Assembly (NCBI RefSeq): GCF_000179635.2
Contig: NC_014833.1
Coordinates: 1,560,001-1,592,000 of the forward strand
Reading direction: 5' to 3'
Length of the DNA: 32,000 nucleotides
Origin: Ruminococcus albus 7 = DSM 20455
Lineage (GTDB): Bacteria > Bacillota > Clostridia > Oscillospirales > Ruminococcaceae
Notes under the pieces: model-generated
What the model was told of the DNA's origin: nothing
What the model saw: the letters and a program-made list of their open reading frames with translations, nothing else
The model's database searches: none
Part shown: piece after piece, positions 23,440 to 31,672 of the stretch
Numbering within the stretch: position 1 is the stretch's first letter
Layout of the letters: each line of letters begins with the position of its first letter
Program-made: the position numbers and the translations under genes

Positions 23440-23532
23440 GGAGAAGTCGCCTAGCCCGGTTTATGGCGCACGACTGGAACTCGTGTATGGGTTAATAGCT
23501 CATCGAGGGTTCGAATCCCTCCTTCTCCGCCA
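23440..23532 (+). tRNA. tRNA-Ser (anticodon GGA), class II with long variable arm, CCA encoded
   Basis: Hand-folded. Acceptor GGAGAAG/CTTCTCC. Anticodon stem CACGA/TCGTG with loop CTGGAAC, giving anticodon GGA. Long variable arm ATGGG..CTCAT. T-arm GAGGG-TTCGAAT-CCCTC. Discriminator G, then CCA. Confidence 0.95.
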
Positions 23533-23563: not shown

Positions 23564-23589
23564 AAAAGCGCGTATTTACGCGCTTTTTT
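23564..23589 (+). terminator. Rho-independent terminator after tRNA-Ser
   Basis: AGCGCGT (23567-23573) pairs with ACGCGCT (23578-23584), followed by a T6 run. An A-run precedes the stem. Confidence 0.8.
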
Positions 23590-23753: not shown

Positions 23754-23815
23754 AGCCCGAATTTGGTGCTTTTCACGAAATGTGAGAACACCGGATTCGG
23801 GCTTTTTTTATTTTT
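23754..23815 (+). terminator. Strong intrinsic terminator/attenuator 27 nt upstream of the amidoligase ATG
   Basis: AGCCCGAATTTGGTG (23754-23768) pairs with CACCGGATTCGGGCT (23789-23803), a 15-bp stem including 2 G-U pairs. It is followed by T7-A-T5 (23803-23815). Confidence 0.75.
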
Positions 23816-23841
23816 ACATATCAAAGAATGGAGGTGAAAGA

Positions 23842-24933
23842 ATGCCGGGAAATTTTGATGGGATAAAAAATAGAAAATTCGGAATCGAGATCGAGATGAC
23901 TGGTATAACAAGGTGCGAAGCTGCTAAAGCAATAAAAAAAGTTCTTGGAGGTGATATAGATCATGTGGGCGGCACCTACGACAAATACACTGTAGGTGAT
24001 GACAAAGGAAGAAAATGGCAGATAGTCTTCGATAGCAGCATTTATGCCCGAAAGAAAAACGGAGATCTTGCCAGTGACTATTACAAGGTAGAGCTTAACT
24101 CTCCCGTACTAGAATATGAGGACTTTGATCTGCTGCAAAATGTTATTCGAGCCCTGAGAAAAACAGGAGCAATAACAGGACCAGATTATGACTGCGGTAC
24201 TCATATCCATATTGATGCATCGGACTACACGCCGCAGCAGATAAGAAACCTTGTAAACCTATGGTCAAGCAAAGAGGATTTCTTGTGGGACGCTCTTCAG
24301 GTATCATCCGCAAGATCAAACTACTGCAAAAAGATCAACCGAACGTTTGTGTATCAGCTCAATCAAAAAAAGCCAAAGACTCTGGATAAGATCAGTGATC
24401 TTTGGTATGCCGAGACTTCAAACAGCCGCTATAACCACTATAATCCGACAAGGTACCATGCTTTGAATCTGCATTCCTTCTTTCAGCACGGACATTACGA
24501 GATAAGAGCCTGCAATGCATCGCTCCATGCTGGAGAGGTAAAGGCGCAGGTATTACTTGCGCTTGCTATCTCAAATGCGGCTGTGACAAAAAAATATTGT
24601 TCCCCTGCTGTATCGCATTCTGACAATATGCGGTACAGCTTTCGTGTTTTTCTGCTGAATTTAGGATTTATCGGTGATGAGTTCAAGAACTATCGGGCTC
24701 ATCTTCTGAAGCACCTTTCCGGGAATATAGCGTGGCGTCACCCAGAAGATGCTATTGCACAGAGAGAACGTCTGAAAGCAGAACGAGAAGCCGCTCGTAA
24801 CGAGCGTGTGCGCCCTGTGTCGCAATACACGGACGAGTTCGGGGAAACACACGATGAGGAACAAACCGCCCCTGTGGACGATTTGTCGGGCAGTTTTGGG
24901 GAAGATGAATCTGCAGTTACAATGAATATGTAG
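23842..24933 (+). CDS. Amidoligase family protein (Pfam Amidoligase_2-like, glutamine-synthetase-like carboxylate-amine ligase fold) with acidic C-terminal tail
   Basis: N-terminal RKFGIEIEMTG, ...KWQIVFDSS..., VELNSPVL and CGTHIHID match the conserved blocks of the mobile-element amidoligase family as I recall them. The ATG at 23842 follows a GGAGGTG SD. The start at 23782 in the ORF track would lie inside the terminator hairpin. Confidence 0.85.
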   Translation: MPGNFDGIKNRKFGIEIEMTGITRCEAAKAIKKVLGGDIDHVGGTYDKYTVGDDKGRKWQIVFDSSIYARKKNGDLASDYYKVELNSPVLEYEDFDLLQNVIRALRKTGAITGPDYDCGTHIHIDASDYTPQQIRNLVNLWSSKEDFLWDALQVSSARSNYCKKINRTFVYQLNQKKPKTLDKISDLWYAETSNSRYNHYNPTRYHALNLHSFFQHGHYEIRACNASLHAGEVKAQVLLALAISNAAVTKKYCSPAVSHSDNMRYSFRVFLLNLGFIGDEFKNYRAHLLKHLSGNIAWRHPEDAIAQRERLKAEREAARNERVRPVSQYTDEFGETHDEEQTAPVDDLSGSFGEDESAVTMNM

Positions 24934-24943
24934 AGGTGAGAAA

Positions 24944-25510
24944 ATGAAAAAGAAAAACGAATACAAACATTCAGAAAAACCGATGCTGTACATCGCTTAC
25001 GGTTCAAACATCAACCTGCCACAGATGGGTTTCAGATGTCCTCATTCAAAGGTCATAGGGACTGCTATGGTCAAAGGCTGGGAACTGGAGTTCCGAGGGG
25101 TTGCAACTATCGTACCGAAACAAAATACCGAAGTTCCCGTATTGCTGTGGGAACTTGACCCAAGGGATATTCCTGCACTCAATCGCTATGAGGGATTTCC
25201 CCATCTGTACAGACAGGAAGATATACCTCTTGAACTTGACGGAAAGCAGGTCATGGGCATGGCGTACCTGATGAACAGAGGGCAGATATCTCCACCAACA
25301 CAGGGGTATTTGCAGACAATATGGGACGGCTATAAGGAGAACGGTATGGATACAAGCTACCTTGTAGAAGCAGCATCAAGGGCATATGATTATGCTTCAA
25401 ATATGAATGTCAGGTATTCACAAGCTATTGATGAAGATGAATACGAGGACTTTGACATTGACGATGATAACAGCCTTGATGATGATATACAGATGAGTTT
25501 CAAACTTTAA
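24944..25510 (+). CDS. Gamma-glutamylcyclotransferase family protein (GGCT/AIG2-like) with acidic C-terminal tail
   Basis: YIAYGSNINLPQMGFRCP (the YGSN motif of the GGCT fold), ...GWELEFRG...ATIVP...VPVLLWELD...LNRYEGFPHLY. An AGGTGAG SD precedes the ATG. Starts 10 nt after the amidoligase stop. Confidence 0.85.
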   Translation: MKKKNEYKHSEKPMLYIAYGSNINLPQMGFRCPHSKVIGTAMVKGWELEFRGVATIVPKQNTEVPVLLWELDPRDIPALNRYEGFPHLYRQEDIPLELDGKQVMGMAYLMNRGQISPPTQGYLQTIWDGYKENGMDTSYLVEAASRAYDYASNMNVRYSQAIDEDEYEDFDIDDDNSLDDDIQMSFKL

Positions 25511-25520
25511 GGAGGCAGAA

Positions 25521-25802
25521 ATGAAATACAAAGGATTTTATATCGACATATCCCCCGACGATCACATTATCCGAAGCGACAGCGACGGAAATAATGTGGT
25601 CTGTCGGGGGTTTTTGTTTTCGGTGTACACTGATGAAGAGCGTACAGAAAAATTCGATGAGTTCTCAGCGGCTGTTGGGTTTGAGATACTGACCGACAGC
25701 ATAGAAGAAGCCGAACAGTTTGCTAAGGACGTGGTTTCATGTGAGGATAAGGCTTTTCACAACGATCAGCAGGATATGACGATGGGAGGTACAGCATTAT
25801 GA
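25521..25802 (+). CDS. Hypothetical small protein (93 aa)
   Basis: AAGGAGG SD 5 nt upstream. Its stop overlaps the next start (ATGA). No family recognised. Confidence 0.7.
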   Translation: MKYKGFYIDISPDDHIIRSDSDGNNVVCRGFLFSVYTDEERTEKFDEFSAAVGFEILTDSIEEAEQFAKDVVSCEDKAFHNDQQDMTMGGTAL

Positions 25803-26638
25803 ATGAGGAAAAGTTAGCGATCAATCTTCCATGCCTTGAAAGAAAGGCTGAAAGTTTCACTACGCACGAATACATCGTTGAAAAGGCTCTGCCTGTAAGT
25901 AATTACAGGTTCAGGCAGATAACGGAAAGTCCGATGAAAGATCATAAGGAGATCCGTGACAACCTTGACTGTATGTACTACGATGGCTTACAGCACCATT
26001 GTCTTTTGATATACGATAAAGAGAATGGCGATGGACTTATAGTCGAAAGCGAGGGTTATGATTACGCGAGGTATGCACAGTATATTCCGCAGGCAAAGCT
26101 GATATGGGAGCAGTTTGCAAAGAACCATGCCCATGAGATCAGATTGTGCTGTCCGCTGGAGATCTATCTTAATATCAGCAATTATCCCCGTGATTTTTGC
26201 ATTGCGGATAACGCAGAGATGGCAAAGTATGCCGATGATATCAATATCGGCATTCGGGAGAATGATCTTCCTGAAGAACGTGAGCGAGGATTGATGCACT
26301 GGTATCATCCCGAAAGTATTGTTGATGAGCTGGATAACAAAGTTTTTTCGGCACATTGCTCAGTGGAGGTAATAGGCGGCGAACTTACAGGAGTTATAAC
26401 GTTAAAGGTGATCGGAGACCTTTCAGCAGATGCAATGGCAAGGTTCATAAAATACTGTTCGGGACAGCTGAGTGATGGCTGGGGTGAGAGTTTAGAGCAG
26501 AAATATCTCAAGACCGATGCAGGCGAAATAAATGTCAGCTTCTGGAACAGCGGTGATGACTGGCAGCTTTTGCCCGAAAAAGACTATCTTGACAGCTTTA
26601 CACGATCGGAAGAAATTGGAATGGGAGGTCAGTCGTGA
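25799..26638 (+). CDS. Hypothetical protein (279 aa), mobile-element-associated two-domain protein
   Basis: Translationally coupled (ATGA overlap at 25799-25802). Blocks such as HHCLLIYDKENGDGLIVESEGYDYARY and CSGQLSDGWGESLEQKY...VSFWNS resemble domains I recall from conjugative-element polyvalent proteins. This needs an HMM check. Confidence 0.75.
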   Translation: MNEEKLAINLPCLERKAESFTTHEYIVEKALPVSNYRFRQITESPMKDHKEIRDNLDCMYYDGLQHHCLLIYDKENGDGLIVESEGYDYARYAQYIPQAKLIWEQFAKNHAHEIRLCCPLEIYLNISNYPRDFCIADNAEMAKYADDINIGIRENDLPEERERGLMHWYHPESIVDELDNKVFSAHCSVEVIGGELTGVITLKVIGDLSADAMARFIKYCSGQLSDGWGESLEQKYLKTDAGEINVSFWNSGDDWQLLPEKDYLDSFTRSEEIGMGGQS

Positions 26639-26692
26639 AAGAAGAAATCGATATAACACAGATTTTTATGATAAGTGGAGGAGTATAAAGAA

Positions 26693-27589
26693 ATGAACAA
26701 TGATCTGAAACAATTCATGGGGAAAACATTTCCGACAGGTACCAAAATCAAGATAGACCGTGCGGCAAATGATGATATAGTAGGAAAGACATATATTGTG
26801 GACAGAATTGACGATAATGGTTTGTACTGTTCAACAGAAAGCGGTAATGTGGTGCTAATAGATCCTGATGAATCGACGTTTTACAAGCTTGATCAGCCGC
26901 CAATAGTAGCATACGGCTGCGATGATGAGCCTGCGAAACTGACAGACGTTAGGCAGATATCAGAGTTCATCATCAACAACGGATTGTACGGCGATATCAC
27001 TATGTACAAAAAGGACACGGGAGAATTTGTGCTGAGTACAATGGGTATCTTCATTGACCAAATTGCTGATATGGATTTCCGAAACGAGCTGCTGACGATA
27101 CTAGTTCCGCTTCAGCAGCAGTTTCCATTTGGTATGCTGGATGAACAGGATAACGGAGAAACGGAAGCCACTGAATGGAACAAAAGAAAAATTTTTAATT
27201 ATAGTGGAACGCAGGTGTATTTTGAGATATCGGACTACGAATCGGATCCGTCTATTATGGCGATAACATTGTTCACATCGGACGGTGAAGAATTCGGCAC
27301 ACTGAGCGTAAATGTTCGGGAACACGGACATATCGAGCCAAATCAGACCTTAATAGATACCAACAATATGCCGAATGCGGTTGAATTCCTTGAGTCGATC
27401 AAAGGCGTAGAACCTGTCACGGAAAATGGTGTTCCTGTTACTGCCAAAAGCGGGTTTTGCGAGTATCCACTGTTTGAGTTCAGTGAAGAATTACTTGCGG
27501 ATATGGATCTTAAGGGATATATGGAGCATATTCACAACTATGATCGAGCATTGACTGATATGACTAAAGAAATGACAATGGGAGGCTGA
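26693..27589 (+). CDS. Hypothetical protein (298 aa): N-terminal DUF4314-like small beta domain, C-terminal DUF4313-like region (tentative)
   Basis: The ATG at 26693 follows a GGAGGAG SD (the GTG at 26675 in the ORF track is inside the SD). N-terminus FPTGTKIKIDRAANDDIVGKTYIVDRIDDNG...LIDPDESTF parallels the DUF4314 protein at 28164. C-terminus AITLFTSDGEEFGTLSVNV...LIDTNNMPNAVEFLE...SGFCEYPLFEF. Confidence 0.75.
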   Translation: MNNDLKQFMGKTFPTGTKIKIDRAANDDIVGKTYIVDRIDDNGLYCSTESGNVVLIDPDESTFYKLDQPPIVAYGCDDEPAKLTDVRQISEFIINNGLYGDITMYKKDTGEFVLSTMGIFIDQIADMDFRNELLTILVPLQQQFPFGMLDEQDNGETEATEWNKRKIFNYSGTQVYFEISDYESDPSIMAITLFTSDGEEFGTLSVNVREHGHIEPNQTLIDTNNMPNAVEFLESIKGVEPVTENGVPVTAKSGFCEYPLFEFSEELLADMDLKGYMEHIHNYDRALTDMTKEMTMGG

Positions 27590-27591
27590 TC

Positions 27592-27732
27592 ATGAAGGAA
27601 GAAATAGCAATACCACAGAAGTACGTTGAAATGATCAAGAAAGCCGCAGAACAACAAGGTGTTTCAGCTGATGATATAGTCGAAACTGAAATAAAAAACT
27701 TTTTAGAAAGAGGTGCAGAAAATGCCGAATGA
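27592..27732 (+). CDS. Small ribbon-helix-helix (CopG/Arc-like) protein, 46 aa, absent from the ORF track
   Basis: MKEEIAIPQKYVEMIKKAAEQQGVSADDIVETEIKNFLERGAENAE has a beta-strand (IAIP) plus two helices. The ATG lies 2 nt after the previous stop, with a GGGAGG SD at 27580-27585. Its 3' end overlaps the next gene's ATG by 11 nt. Confidence 0.6.
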   Translation: MKEEIAIPQKYVEMIKKAAEQQGVSADDIVETEIKNFLERGAENAE

Positions 27733-28159
27733 GAAAAAAGGCATAACCGTAAAGGTTGATGCTGAGCTTCACGCCAAGGTAAGGACATACATCGAAGAAC
27801 ATGGTATAACAATGAACGATTTTGTAGCTCAGGCTCTGGATAACGAGCTGCACCCGAAGATACAGGAGGCAAGAAATATGGGTAATATGAGGACTATGGC
27901 GTTTCAGGTTCCAGAGGAACTGTTTGATCAGATAAAGGACTATCTCAACAGGCATCATATGACGCAGAAGGAATTTGTTCTTGGTTTGATAAAAGCAGAG
28001 CTTGATAGAGATCAGCAGCAGACAGCTGTCGAAGAGGCAGATGAAGCTGAAGATGAGGAGCTTGACGAAGAATATGAGGTTGAAGAAACTGAGGGTTATC
28101 CAGACAATGAAGATGAAGACCTCGAAGAGTATGATGATCTGAGCATGGATATGGGGTGA
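27722..28159 (+). CDS. Tandem double ribbon-helix-helix protein with a long acidic C-terminal tail
   Basis: Two RHH-like units: KKGITVKVDAELHAKVRTYIEEHGITMNDFVAQALDNEL and MRTMAFQVPEELFDQIKDYLNRHHMTQKEFVLGLIKAELDR. These are followed by a ~45-aa D/E-rich tail. The ATG at 27722 follows an AGAGGTG SD. Confidence 0.75.
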   Translation: MPNEKKGITVKVDAELHAKVRTYIEEHGITMNDFVAQALDNELHPKIQEARNMGNMRTMAFQVPEELFDQIKDYLNRHHMTQKEFVLGLIKAELDRDQQQTAVEEADEAEDEELDEEYEVEETEGYPDNEDEDLEEYDDLSMDMG

Positions 28160-28163
28160 TAAA

Positions 28164-28427
28164 ATGCGAAGCAAAACCGAGATGATAAGAAATAGATATC
28201 CCGTAGGAACGAGAGTATGCTGTGACGAGATGCCTGATGATCCTAATCCTATACCTCGCGGGACTTGTGGAACTGTTATGGGAGTTGATGATGCAGGGCA
28301 ACTGATTATGAAATGGGATAATGGTAGGTCGCTGTCTATTATTCCGGGAGTTGACAGATTTCATGTTGTTGAGCAAAATGAGGATGAGTCTTTGAAAGAA
28401 AATGAAGGGATTGATTTGTCTATGTAG
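28164..28427 (+). CDS. DUF4314 domain-containing protein
   Basis: YPVGTRVCCDEMPDDPNPIPRGTCGTVMGVDDAGQLIMKWDNGRSLSIIPGVDRF matches the DUF4314 pattern as I recall it. A GGGGTGA SD precedes the ATG. It is the last gene of the coupled array. Confidence 0.8.
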   Translation: MRSKTEMIRNRYPVGTRVCCDEMPDDPNPIPRGTCGTVMGVDDAGQLIMKWDNGRSLSIIPGVDRFHVVEQNEDESLKENEGIDLSM

Positions 28428-28819: not shown

Positions 28820-28849
28820 TTGACAAAGATATAACAATTATGATATACT
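28820..28849 (+). promoter_or_regulatory. sigma-A promoter candidate with extended -10 for the paralogue pair
   Basis: TTGACA at 28820-28825, an 18-nt spacer, TGaTATACT with TATACT at 28844-28849. The SD AGGAGGA lies at 28883-28889. Confidence 0.55.
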
Positions 28850-28896: not shown

Positions 28897-30261
28897 ATGG
28901 GAAACTTTTTTCATACTGTGCATTTTAAAATCAAGGACAAAGAAAAATTTTTCAAAGGTATCAACGCATATATGAAAAAGAAAGGCTTCGTGCCATGTGA
29001 TGACGATGAAGCCGTGAAAACTTATATCATTGCGTTATCTGTTGATCAGCAGTGGGCAACTCTTGCTGATATGGACAGCAGTGATGAATCAAGAGCGCTT
29101 TTTAATGATGCCAAGGCTGTTTCAAAAAGCATGAAACTTCCGTGTATTACCGAGGTTATAACCGACAGCGATATCGCGGTACTTGAACTCTTTGACAAAA
29201 CAGGAGAGAGCGCAGATAGGATCGTTGTGGGCGATGGTGAGATCTACGGCATGGGAAATAATGAAATAAAGCCCGAATGCTGGAAACCATTGCTGAATAA
29301 CAAAGCAGATATCGAAAAACTCATTGAGTTGACCGGTGAAAGTGATCTTTTGGCTGATGAAAGACTTAGCAAAATATCATTGCTATTTGGCGTGGATATG
29401 CTTGCTGATAGTGATGAACTCGGCATAAGAAATGACGAAAGTATATTAAGACTCAGTTTTAAAAAGGCTGAAGAAAAAAAGCCGACGTTAAACACTTTGT
29501 TTACGCAGATCTACGGTGAGGCACTTGAACCGCTGGGCTTCAAAAAGCCTAAAGTTCGTATGCCTCTATACGTTCGTGTTATCAAAGATGAGATCATACA
29601 TATTGTCGGTATCCATGATATGAAATCACATCTGGTGCCTTTTGGAGCGATCGCCACTGTTTACCGTGAAGATCTTTGTATTGACCGTACATTCCGGCAA
29701 AACGAAAGATGGTATAAACGTTTAAAGGAATTTTATCTTAATTGGCATATATCGGACAAGCCATTTGAAGAAAGCTGTTTTCACTACACCGATATTATTG
29801 ATTATATGCCTTTATCAGACGCAGTTAAGGCTTCATTGAATGCAACTATTACATGGATACTTCCTGTTCTGGATAATGTTAAAACGCTTAAAGATGTAGC
29901 AGATTATGATGATCTTATTTTTAAAGACTATCTTTCCATATCTGCATTACCACTAAATAAATTTCCTGGCGCGTCATATAGTGACGCAGCGATTAGGTTC
30001 CTTTTAGATGATCTAATTAATGACCTTGAAAAGCGATACTCGGTTTTATTGAAACGAAGCGATGAAGCAAATATTCGTTTCCCGCGTCCACAGGAAGACG
30101 TATTAAAAAGTCGTTTAGAATATGAACAGTGGTATAATGAAGCTCGCGAAAGGGTTCAGACATTTCTTGAAGATGAAGAAATACACAAGCAGACAATGGA
30201 AGAACTTGAAAGGCGAAAAGAACATAACCTTGAATTGCTCAGAAAATACAAGATTATTTAA
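28897..30261 (+). CDS. Hypothetical protein, paralogue 1 (454 aa); C-terminal half possibly DUF4304-like
   Basis: Strong SD. 454-aa ORF in an AT-rich region. The block TLFTQIYGEALEPLGFKKPKVRMPLYVRVIKDEIIHIVGIH resembles the N-terminus of DUF4304-type proteins (tentative, from memory). Confidence 0.8.
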   Translation: MGNFFHTVHFKIKDKEKFFKGINAYMKKKGFVPCDDDEAVKTYIIALSVDQQWATLADMDSSDESRALFNDAKAVSKSMKLPCITEVITDSDIAVLELFDKTGESADRIVVGDGEIYGMGNNEIKPECWKPLLNNKADIEKLIELTGESDLLADERLSKISLLFGVDMLADSDELGIRNDESILRLSFKKAEEKKPTLNTLFTQIYGEALEPLGFKKPKVRMPLYVRVIKDEIIHIVGIHDMKSHLVPFGAIATVYREDLCIDRTFRQNERWYKRLKEFYLNWHISDKPFEESCFHYTDIIDYMPLSDAVKASLNATITWILPVLDNVKTLKDVADYDDLIFKDYLSISALPLNKFPGASYSDAAIRFLLDDLINDLEKRYSVLLKRSDEANIRFPRPQEDVLKSRLEYEQWYNEARERVQTFLEDEEIHKQTMEELERRKEHNLELLRKYKII

Positions 30262-30310: not shown

Positions 30311-31672
30311 ATGGGAAACTTTTCAAATACAGTGCATTTTAAGATAGGTGACAAAGAAAAATTTGTCAAAGGTATCAATGCATATATGAAAAAGAAAGGC
30401 TTTGTGCCATGTGATGACGATGAAGCCGTGAAAACTTATATCATTGCGTTATCTGTTGATCAGCAGTGGTCAACTCTTGCTGATATGGACAGCAGTGATG
30501 AATCAAGAGCGCTTTTTAATGATGCCAAGGCTGTTTCAAAAAGCATGAAACTTCCGTGTATTACCGAGGAAGTAACAGACAGCGATATCGCAGTACTTGA
30601 ACTCTTTGACAAAACAGGAGAGAGTTCAGACAGGATCGTTGTGGGCGATGGTGAGATCTACGGCATGGGAAATAATGAAATAAAGCCCGAATGCTGGGAA
30701 CCGCTGCTGAATAACAAAGCAGATATCGAAAAACTCATTGAGTTAATCGGTGAAAGTGATCTCATGGCTGATGAAAGACTTAGCATGATATCATCGCTTT
30801 TCGGCGTGGATATGCTAGCTGATAGTGATGAACTCGGCATAAGAAATGACGAAAGTATATTAAGACTCAGTTTTAAAAAGGCTGAAGAAAAAAAGCCGAC
30901 GTTAAACACTTTGTTTACTCAGATCTACGGTGAGGCACTTGAACCATTAGGATTTAAAAAGCCAAAAGTTCGTATGCCGTTATACGTTCGTGTTATCAAC
31001 GATGAGATCATACATATTGTAGGTATCCATGATATGAAAAATCAGCTGGTACCCTTTGGTGCGATCGCCACTGTTTACCGCAAAGATCTTTGTATTGACC
31101 GTACATTCCGACAAAACGAAACATGGTATAAAGATCTATGGGATTTCTATCATGAGTGGCATATAGCTGACGAACCATTTGATAAGGGCGGTTTTGACTA
31201 TTATAATGATCTTATGCCTTTATCAGACGCCGTTCAGAATTCATTTAATGCAACTATGACATGGATACTCCCTGTTCTTGATAATGTTAAAACGCTCAAA
31301 GATGTAGCAGATTATAATGAATGTATGTTTAAAAATCATATTACGGTTATTTCATTGCCAATAAATGAATCTCTTGCTGCGCCATATAGTGATACTGTGA
31401 TCAAGTATATTTTAGATGATCCGTTGTCTGATCTTGAAAAACGGTACTCTACTGCATTGAAAAAGATTGATGAATCAAATAAAAGATACAATTTTTCACA
31501 GGAAAAAATAACACAAGATCGTTTAGAATATGAACAACGATATAATGAATCTCGTCAAAGAGTGAAAACTTTTCTTGAAGATGAAGAAATACATAAGCAG
31601 ACAATGGAAGAACTTGAAAGGAGAAAAGAGCATAACCTTGAATTACTCAGGAAATACAAGATTATTTACTGA
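30311..31672 (+). CDS. Hypothetical protein, paralogue 2 (453 aa)
   Basis: The ATG at 30311 (MGNFSNTVHFKIGDKEKF) aligns with the start of paralogue 1 and follows a CAGGAGAA SD. The 63-codon 5' extension in the ORF track (from 30122) overlaps the end of paralogue 1 in another frame and is not credible. Confidence 0.8.
   Translation: MGNFSNTVHFKIGDKEKFVKGINAYMKKKGFVPCDDDEAVKTYIIALSVDQQWSTLADMDSSDESRALFNDAKAVSKSMKLPCITEEVTDSDIAVLELFDKTGESSDRIVVGDGEIYGMGNNEIKPECWEPLLNNKADIEKLIELIGESDLMADERLSMISSLFGVDMLADSDELGIRNDESILRLSFKKAEEKKPTLNTLFTQIYGEALEPLGFKKPKVRMPLYVRVINDEIIHIVGIHDMKNQLVPFGAIATVYRKDLCIDRTFRQNETWYKDLWDFYHEWHIADEPFDKGGFDYYNDLMPLSDAVQNSFNATMTWILPVLDNVKTLKDVADYNECMFKNHITVISLPINESLAAPYSDTVIKYILDDPLSDLEKRYSTALKKIDESNKRYNFSQEKITQDRLEYEQRYNESRQRVKTFLEDEEIHKQTMEELERRKEHNLELLRKYKIIY

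Follow-up and report, generated by a model that had tools for sequence, protein, structure and literature searches.

The subject of this analysis is a pair of adjacent genes in a 32,000-nucleotide (nt) stretch of the Ruminococcus albus 7 chromosome (the window; contig NC_014833.1, positions 1,560,001 to 1,592,000). The first encodes an amidoligase of 363 amino acids (aa) (23842..24933) and the second a γ-glutamylcyclotransferase (GGCT) of 188 aa (24944..25510); both lie on the plus strand, like the tRNA gene, hairpins and operon genes located below. The two genes are co-transcribed, 10 nt apart, and have been inherited together over a range of 23–97% sequence identity and in two classes of element. 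They constitute a two-enzyme accessory module of gut Clostridia mobile elements, namely temperate phages and tRNA-integrating, probably conjugative elements, and the copy in the window is an ordinary member of this known and widespread module. It is proposed, with slightly less than even confidence, that the ligase makes a γ-glutamyl-type amide on a host cytoplasmic amine and that GGCT cyclises the adduct to 5-oxoproline, the modification being transient or proof-read.

The open reading frame (ORF) of the ligase extends from 23782 to 24933, with the true start at the ATG at 23842 rather than at an upstream GTG. A ribosome-binding site (RBS), GGAGGTG, is found at 23830-23836, and all homologues open with the motif M-x-G-N-F-[DE]-G-I. 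The product matches the Pfam family Amidoligase_2 (PF12224) over profile positions 1-244 of 245 (E 1.2e-61; 209 bits, cut-off 22) and phrog_2443 (E 1.2e-78). It consists of a catalytic domain with the predicted glutamine synthetase (GS)/glutamate–cysteine ligase (GCL) fold (aa 9-243, 23866-24570, delimited by Pfam), an extra helical C-terminal domain that is shared with catalytically dead paralogues (aa ~245-305, 24574-24756), and a charged helix that runs into a disordered acidic tail ending in ...EDESAVTMNM (aa 323-363, 24808-24930), where the pLDDT of the AlphaFold2 (AF2) model falls below 50. The family criterion for the metal, ATP and acyl-phosphate site is a set of invariant acidic, histidine and arginine residues on the core strands; in 27 ligases with 56-85% identity to the window protein E16, E18, E84, H121, H123, R204, H211, E220 and R222 are invariant.

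The AF2 model of the ligase (pLDDT 78.6) was compared with the Protein Data Bank (PDB) using Foldseek, and the sole full-length matches are YbdK (1tt4/1r8g), plant GCL (2gwc), GshF and glutamine synthetases. The scores are low (TM 0.33-0.45 overall, 0.41-0.45 to YbdK, E ~1e-4), and no solved structure is matched by sequence or profile search of the PDB. From its profile match and conserved residues the first gene is an intact predicted ATP-dependent carboxylate–amine ligase of the GS/GCL fold. The Amidoligase_2 family is of considerable size and abounds in gut phages and integrated elements: clustering of public data at 50% identity leaves 4,851 representatives that match at E <= 1e-3, of which 475 reach E <= 1e-30.

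The ligase stop codon at 24933 is followed by a 10-nt spacer containing AGGTGA, after which the GGCT gene begins with the ATG at 24944. This protein, whose core spans aa 14-165, matches the Pfam families GGACT (E 1.9e-11; 45 bits, cut-off 22.8) and AIG2_2 (E 1e-8; 35.9 bits, cut-off 27), phrog_2520 (E 5e-31) and, by sequence, human GGCT (E 2e-10). The core is followed by a disordered acidic tail that ends in ...DDDIQMSFKL (aa 166-188, 25439-25507, AF2 pLDDT <50). Superimposing the AF2 model (pLDDT 82.7) onto human GGCT (3cry/2rbh) gives a target-normalised TM of 0.71 and a root mean squared deviation of 2.1 Å over 147 columns, and the structural matches to GGACT and ChaC2 are clearly weaker. 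The residues Y19-G20-S21-N22 and E83 are invariant across the GGCT family members aligned; the YGSN loop aligns to that of the human enzyme and E83 to its catalytic E98, the site of the E98Q exchange in 3cry. The second gene is accordingly described as an intact predicted γ-glutamylcyclotransferase of the C7orf24 type (PF13772/PF06094). Enzymes with this chemistry require a γ-glutamyl substrate with a free α-amino group, and by analogy the window protein should act on γ-glutamyl groups of this kind, typically γ-Glu-amino acids. Neither the ligase nor GGCT has a match in NCBIfam or PADLOC. Both domain calls of an earlier, sequence-only reading of this DNA are confirmed by hidden Markov model matches above the curated cut-offs, and the coordinates and 10-nt spacing that it gave for the pair are exact.

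Related loci were collected from GTDB genomes, 80 in all, each of Ruminococcus or Oscillospiraceae type (these and other loci are cited here by L numbers where they need to be told apart); 56 have an intact ligase gene and enough downstream sequence. A GGCT gene lies within 300 nt 3' of the ligase in 52 of these 56, mostly at a distance of ~10 nt, and at one further locus the two are separated by a 2.9-kb insertion. The genome loci share descent, and they therefore count as one or a few events. Phages provide evidence that is independent of these loci. A search of 50,697 phage records identified 102 that encode a relative of the ligase and 44 that encode a relative of GGCT; at least 16 carry both genes on the same strand no more than 1 kb apart, where ~0.09 shared records would be expected. 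The paired phages are 'Ca. Heliusvirales' phages of gut Clostridia with 36-50% identity, and GGCT follows the ligase in at least 16 of 18 gut Clostridia phages. At the level of 23-26% identity the genes are still linked in Bacillus phage 031MP004 (genes 40 and 44, 1.1 kb apart) and, in reversed order, in Arthrobacter phage Waltz, where genes 94-96 encode GGACT, amidoligase and GATase. The domains and their adjacency cannot be due to chance. Co-location of the two families elsewhere was the test by which the sequence-only reading had proposed that it be refuted, and the idea has withstood it in genome loci, phage records and distant phages.

Insertions of ~2.6-2.9 kb split the ligase and GGCT genes in several relatives (L069, L071, L087-L089). 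The insertion in the metagenome loci L087-L089 (11778-13631) encodes a reverse transcriptase (RVT_1) and is probably a group II intron. A scan of IMG/VR gave 10 loci, mostly at contig edges.

The amidoligase/AIG2-GGCT gene neighbourhood was reportedly described by Iyer, Abhiman, Burroughs and Aravind in 2009 (Mol Biosyst), and the Pfam entry PF12224 is said to place the family beside a GATase-like peptidase in Proteobacteria or an Aig2 cyclotransferase in Firmicutes. Both families are annotated in PHROGs, the ligase as 2443 and GGCT as 2520. The pair is listed as orf22/23 of Tn6164 of C. difficile (PMC3485107) and in a prophage table of C. clostridioforme (PMC11318856), and LUZ24-like Pseudomonas phages carry it alongside a GATase and an ATP-grasp enzyme (PMC3890496). 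The pairing is not a new insight, having been reported before in PHROGs 2443/2520, in the Tn6164 and C. clostridioforme tables and reportedly by Iyer et al. The idea about its function is sensible, though it dates back more than 15 years and is still conjecture; a writer and eraser of γ-glutamyl amides is the best guess, neither new nor proven.

In later papers, Iyer et al. 2009 is cited for the view that phage amidoligases and their partners modify the cell wall or make secondary metabolites. Modification of cell-envelope precursors, leading to superinfection or entry exclusion, is a proposal attributed to Iyer et al. 2009, and the citing papers give it for amidoligase/GATase pairs of the phiEco32 type. 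Peptidoglycan stem peptides do contain γ-glutamyl bonds and free amines. The D-Glu of the stem peptide, however, has an acylated α-amine, which by established GGCT chemistry cannot be cyclised; neither sequence contains a signal peptide or membrane segment, and no envelope genes are linked to the pair. An envelope role is considered distinctly unlikely.

The reaction favoured here would begin with activation by the ligase of a γ-carboxylate, glutamate, which all characterised superfamily members use, being its most likely source. The carboxylate would be joined, in the cytoplasm, to an amine on a metabolite or some other component of the host. GGCT would turn those γ-glutamyl adducts that have a free α-amine into 5-oxoproline and the free amine and, since it would act solely on such groups, the modification would be transient, self-limiting or proof-read. 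The target would be one common to phage infection and conjugation, and not the tails of the neighbouring proteins. It is probably a small γ-glutamyl adduct with a free α-amine, since the requirement of a C7orf24-type GGCT for this group favours small adducts over peptide tags. The pair travels with orphan DNA methyltransferases and DUF4314, a gene set that elements deploy on arrival in a cell.

The same two activities could also constitute a miniature γ-glutamyl cycle, in which the ligase makes γ-Glu-amino acid dipeptides and GGCT yields 5-oxoproline and the amino acid. The net effect would be the ATP-driven conversion of glutamate to 5-oxoproline, draining ATP and glutamate or raising 5-oxoproline in the host. 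Such a cycle would fit a GGCT that is closest to the human enzyme, which acts on γ-Glu-α-amino acids, and not to GGACT or ChaC, and a ligase whose best full-length structural matches are YbdK and glutamate–cysteine ligases; both proteins are cytoplasmic, and no other partner would be needed. A futile cycle would, however, bring no obvious gain to a temperate phage or integrated element, and the C-terminal domain of the ligase, its dead paralogues and the linkage to methylase and DUF4314 genes suggest a macromolecular context. The cycle is regarded as unlikely.

Several observations weigh against a transient γ-glutamyl modification of a host amine as proposed here. No experimentally defined substrate for any member of Amidoligase_2 was found in the literature searched, in agreement with the sequence-only reading. 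That glutamate is used is extrapolated from distant homologues (TM 0.41-0.45 to YbdK), and if the ligase made γ-Glu-amino acids the pair would be a futile ATP-consuming cycle. No PADLOC or NCBIfam model assigns the ligase or GGCT to a known system of defence or anti-defence. Three intact ligase genes have no GGCT partner (L020, L046 and L052), which implies that the eraser is not strictly required. Finally, no type IV secretion system (T4SS) genes or origin of transfer (oriT) were seen in the window or in the loci of the relatives, so the terms 'conjugative' and 'export signal' as used here are inferred. Work on Klebsiella CfmP was considered as a case of a defined amidoligase substrate and rejected, the enzyme concerned being an ATP-grasp enzyme and not a member of this family.

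The unpartnered ligases also bear on the idea of a toxin–antitoxin or addiction pair, in which a toxic ligase would be countered by GGCT as an enzymatic antidote. Enzymatic writer/eraser pairs of this type exist, DarT/DarG being an example, and the pair is positioned at the edge of the element, near PemK toxins in some loci. Nevertheless, intact ligases persist without GGCT at the three loci just named, and in the protein P0023 (423 aa, 4 contigs) a natural deletion has joined the amidoligase to the C-terminal half of GGCT, lacking the YGSN loop and the catalytic Glu. The persistence of P0023 on several contigs argues against a ligase that is toxic alone. Nor is the pair found dispersed as a self-standing cassette of two genes, and, as noted, it has no PADLOC match. 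A strict toxin–antitoxin relationship was rejected because of the unpartnered ligases and the P0023 fusion, and the idea as a whole is highly improbable.

The extra C-terminal domain of the ligase consists of two conserved helices with the consensus ...RYSFRVxLLNLGxxGDEFKNxRxHLLKHLxGNIAWR. The 216-254-aa 'virulence-related proteins' of Firmicute phages consist of this domain and a catalytically dead counterpart of the whole ligase fold (hhalign probability 96-97.5%), and they lack H121/H123 and the E-x-E motif. Genes for these dead paralogues were seen at L081 (5115-5879), at L097 (3352-4002) and in phages of Streptococcus, Erysipelothrix and gut Clostridia. DUF6329 and DUF4313, two families encoded downstream of the pair in the window, were considered as further dead paralogues and ruled out (hhalign probability 0.2%). 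In the phages the genes are arranged as a block upstream of the terminase, comprising a ParB-N6 methylase, a C5 methylase, the dead paralogue, the active ligase and GGCT where present, and DUF4314.

This fixed block of methylase, dead-paralogue and DUF4314 genes, lying just upstream of the terminase, might indicate a role in DNA or nucleotide hypermodification or in support of a methyltransferase. The ligase would attach an amino-acid moiety to a modified base or cofactor, or process one already there, and GGCT would deprotect the product, much as BtrG removes a γ-glutamyl protecting group in butirosin synthesis. Tn6164 also has a SAM (S-adenosylmethionine) synthetase at this place (PMC3485107), and viromes pair amidoligase genes of unknown role with genes for thymidine hypermodification (PMC8989533). 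The window, however, has no methylase within 7 kb downstream, no 5-hydroxymethyluracil (5-hmU) kinase, glycosylase-like or other base-modifying genes are present, and Streptococcus phages keep the methylase/dead-paralogue/DUF4314 block without the active pair. A part in hypermodification is thus given a low probability, and a transient γ-glutamyl modification of a host amine is preferred.

In the window the gene order before the operon is a ThiF-family gene, then tRNA-Ser(GGA) and then the packed plus-strand operon, on a chromosome that bears dockerin-carrying GH9, GH26 and GH10 genes and has its best protein match, with 97% identity, in R. albus. The tRNA is a host gene (23440..23532; ARAGORN and Rfam), and its 3' CCA (~23530) is the left end of the inserted element, corresponding to the attL side. 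When the window is aligned with L002, which has tRNA-Leu instead of tRNA-Ser, homology starts exactly at this CCA. A terminator hairpin with a T-run, read from the sequence just past the tRNA (23564..23589), is part of the conserved left end and is kept in L001, L002 and L006. In the relatives the amidoligase lies ~300 nt past tRNA-Ser, -Leu, -Pro or -Arg genes, and it is the first gene at every tRNA-inserted copy of the element family. From the start of homology at the tRNA 3' end and the ~300-nt spacing it follows that the genes at the tRNA-proximal end begin with the pair, as the sequence-only reading supposed when it placed the pair first in the array of a mobile element. A single element family is found at the 3' ends of several tRNAs: Ser-GGA, Leu-GAG, Pro-TGG and Arg-CCG (the window, L002, L006, L008 and L059).

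In a second group of relatives the pair lies ~64 nt downstream of three large serine recombinases in the same orientation, and this recombinase block is itself preceded by sigma-factor, PemK and DUF3789 genes. The tRNA-end and recombinase-linked arrangements are circular permutations of a single order: recombinase, hairpin, ligase. The integrated elements are probably conjugative, and in one relative (L004) a MobA/VirD2 relaxase fragment directly follows the array. An outward walk reached neither T4SS genes nor the other end of the element: the window protein encoded at 30311-31672 is not on record, and a DUF3849 homologue occurs only on short contigs.

The hairpin of this order is present in the window as a predicted intrinsic-terminator-like structure (23754..23810), identified by folding, with a 22-bp stem at 23754-23803 followed by a run of seven U residues. 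Its folding energy is -33.5 kcal/mol (z = -8.4), and it ends ~20 nt before the RBS and ~30 nt before the start codon of the ligase. A hairpin and U-run of differing sequence occur at the equivalent place in all 12 of the relatives folded, drawn from L003-L059, and in the recombinase-linked loci the hairpin abuts the ligase RBS. Rfam contains no family for the hairpin upstream of the ligase. No sigma-70-like promoter was found between the tRNA terminator and the ligase gene, which suggests regulated read-through or expression after circularisation; the next unit, that of two tandem ORFs of ~453 aa, has a consensus promoter of its own at 28820-28849. We infer that the operon (23842-28427) is insulated from flanking transcription while integrated, and that it would be expressed by read-through of the terminator from the recombinase side, which in tRNA-integrated copies means after circularisation. 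Transcription would then enter from the upstream recombinase genes in the circular form.

In the integrated copies the C-termini of both the ligase and GGCT form disordered acidic tails (pLDDT <50) whose tip is hydrophobic and rich in Met. The tails have the form ...[DE]n-Phi-x-M-x-M/F, with conserved tips and variable linkers, and similar tails are observed on the 93-aa, DUF6329, DUF4313, ribbon-helix-helix (RHH) and DUF4314 proteins of the window and, in relatives, also on LPD28, DUF3849 and other proteins. A tail was scored when the final 20 residues had a net acidic charge of 4 or more and the final 8 included at least one Met. By this measure 153 of 376 array ORFs carry the motif, compared with 8 of 526 upstream ORFs, and 51 of 253 array ORFs do so when the two enzymes are removed (Fisher p = 5e-19, for sequences that are not phylogenetically independent). 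At least half of the members carry it in each of at least seven unrelated families. The tail was also seen in L004, L006, L012 and L091.

The phage proteins lack this feature. Six of six gut-phage ligases inspected end right after the C-terminal domain, their GGCTs end at 143-162 aa, and the phage DUF4314 orthologues are likewise without a tail; among near-full-length representative ligase clusters the tail is present in 4 of 135 and absent from 131. The tail is an acquisition specific to the integrated-element lineage and shared operon-wide. The sequence-only reading had considered the co-encoded acidic-tailed proteins as a possible substrate. This is now disfavoured: the phage modules keep both enzymes without tails, and the tails of the neighbours therefore cannot be a conserved substrate.

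A Pup-like system, in which the ligase would place a protein, a peptide or single glutamates on host defence proteins or on the acidic tails and GGCT would remove the tag, is brought to mind by the ...MGGQS and ...MGG ends of neighbouring proteins, which recall the GGQ end of Pup, and by PafA belonging to the fold superfamily predicted for the ligase. The ligase, however, has no Pup_ligase match, being recognised by Amidoligase_2 alone, and the GG codons coincide with the GGAGG RBS of the next gene, at a varying distance from the C-terminus; a small tag protein of the Pup kind would have a terminal GGQ or GGE, and the GG ends here are not terminal. The tailless phage modules and the inability of a C7orf24-type GGCT to cleave a peptide-linked tag also stand against it. 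The reading was rejected on the missing Pup_ligase signature and on the ...MGG(QS/TAL) ends, which are not terminal and overlap GGAGG, and must be held very unlikely.

That the MGG endings are merely downstream ribosome-binding sites was also considered as a full account of the tails and rejected. It explains the GG codons of three genes (GGAGG) but is only partial, because the acidic run, the Met residues and the tails of the ligase, GGCT, RHH and DUF4314 proteins stay unexplained. Analogy with the E-block signal of Legionella and with TraD of F, whose acidic tail binds TraM, makes a docking or export motif common to these proteins the best reading of the tails. Both enzymes and most of their operon neighbours would thus have gained a shared docking or export signal in the integrated copies. 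Transfer of protein by the F plasmid is documented (PMC8406263). A further step, that the tails are a conjugation export or docking signal and that both enzymes are injected with the DNA for a transient γ-glutamyl modification of a host target before element expression, is doubtful. If true, this would be the first time that an effector signal of a Gram-positive conjugative T4SS is defined by sequence; the orphan Amidoligase_2 family would gain a functional context, and the tail would offer a handle for finding the proteins that Gram-positive conjugative elements send into recipients.

The genes that follow the pair belong to the same operon. The third gene (25521..25802) encodes a conserved protein of ~90 aa (93 aa in the window) of no known family, without a match in Pfam, NCBIfam or PHROGs, and is found 3' of GGCT in nearly all related genome loci; its 68 distinct members have the consensus MxYKGF...DxFSAAVGxExL...EAEQFAKD. 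It is absent from the phage loci inspected. The next gene encodes a DUF6329 protein (25799..26638; Pfam) with the tail ...SEEIGMGGQS and is conserved in L090 and L091. The DUF4313 protein (26693..27589; Pfam), with the tail ...KEMTMGG, has its start revised from the sequence to the ATG at 26693, behind GGAGGAG, and is the variable member, deleted in L001 and absent from the L090 array. A conserved 46-aa ORF (27592..27732), read from the sequence and called as a gene in L090 and L091, is translationally coupled to the preceding gene. It is followed by a ribbon-helix-helix/HicB-like DNA-binding protein (27713..28159; Pfam and PHROG) with a long acidic tail, ...DDLSMDMG, and by the DUF4314 protein (28164..28427; Pfam E 9e-28), which closes the operon with the tail ...EGIDLSM and whose family adjoins the pair in phages.

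The array of the relatives continues from DUF6329, RHH and DUF4314 with C5 and Dam methylases, Bro/ANT, LPD28, DUF3849 and YodL/DUF3846. Families of the orphan methylase, LPD28, DUF3849 and YodL/DUF3846 types are typical of the proteins that conjugative elements deploy in recipients (PMC5512222). It is therefore plausible, as the sequence-only reading suggested, that the array enters or acts in a new host cell, with which the orphan methylases, LPD28, YodL/DUF3846 and the relaxase fragment of the relatives are consistent.

Beyond the operon lie the two tandem paralogous ORFs of ~453 aa (28897-30261 and 30311-31672). They have no match in Pfam, NCBIfam or PHROGs, and the first has none in PADLOC either. 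They hold the position of a GmrSD type IV restriction gene in the R. albus AR67 relative, and for this reason may be cargo or a defence gene. In the same relative (L090, 13384-17143) three tyrosine recombinases are inserted into the DUF4314 gene of an array that is otherwise 93-97% identical. Human-gut relatives carry, downstream of the pair, a pPIWI-RE system, a RES-domain toxin with a MauJ-like partner, and acetyltransferases (L085-L086, 16933-21104; L083, 13921-16368), which are variable defence cargoes.

Three features of the module appear to be new. The pair comes first after the tRNA attachment end, always with an intrinsic terminator before it; the C-terminal domain of the ligase is common to dead paralogues beside DNA methylases and DUF4314; and the acidic Met-tipped tail is limited to the integrated, probably conjugative copies, where at least seven unrelated neighbour families also carry it. 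No description of the tails, the ~90-aa third gene or the terminator-gated attachment-site position was found in the literature, in which Iyer et al. 2009 is known only second-hand. Taken together, the tails, the terminator-gated position and the block of dead paralogue, DUF4314 and methylases point to the place and time at which the enzymes may act. In chemistry the Ruminococcus copy brings nothing new, and it is the comparison across elements that narrows the search for the target.

Among known systems, the tails resemble the C-terminal signals of T4SS substrates and partners, such as the E-block of Legionella Dot/Icm effectors and the tail with which TraD of F contacts TraM, in having a disordered Glu/Asp-rich C-terminus with a hydrophobic tip that recurs on many unrelated proteins of a single transfer system. 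They differ in that the elements are Gram-positive and the tip is Met-rich (Phi-x-M-x-M/F). Pupylation by PafA/Dop employs a ligase of the fold superfamily predicted for the window ligase, which forms an isopeptide from a γ-carboxylate, whereas the window lacks Pup, the Pup_ligase signature and a proteasome, and its eraser is a cyclotransferase that needs a free α-amine.

PuuA/PuuD, which act on putrescine, and BtrJ/BtrG of butirosin synthesis follow the logic proposed for the window pair: a γ-glutamyl group is put on an amine by an ATP-dependent ligase and taken off by a second enzyme. In BtrJ/BtrG the ligase is of the ATP-grasp type and the second enzyme a cyclotransferase with the GGCT fold, and PuuD acts as a hydrolase; both pairs belong to catabolic or antibiotic clusters and not to the establishment regions of phages or mobile elements. 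The γ-glutamyl cycle (GCL or YbdK with C7orf24) has the activities predicted for the window pair: an ATP-dependent ligase, of the fold superfamily to which the window ligase probably belongs, makes a γ-glutamyl amide, and a GGCT with the same YGSN and Glu site converts γ-Glu-X to 5-oxoproline and X. The window ligase is nevertheless remote (~12% identity, TM 0.41-0.45), and its genes belong to a mobile element with no glutathione context. The nearest counterparts are the PF12224 neighbourhoods (Iyer et al. 2009; PHROGs 2443/2520), where the partner gene is of AIG2/GGCT type in Firmicutes and of class-II GATase-like type in phages and Proteobacteria. The AIG2/GGCT form contains the same two families as the window in the same order, tightly spaced and carried by phages or integrated elements, and its function has been assigned by computation only. 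From these the window subclade is distinguished by its residence in tRNA-integrating, probably conjugative elements, to which it adds the tails, the ~90-aa third gene and the terminator-gated position at the attachment site.

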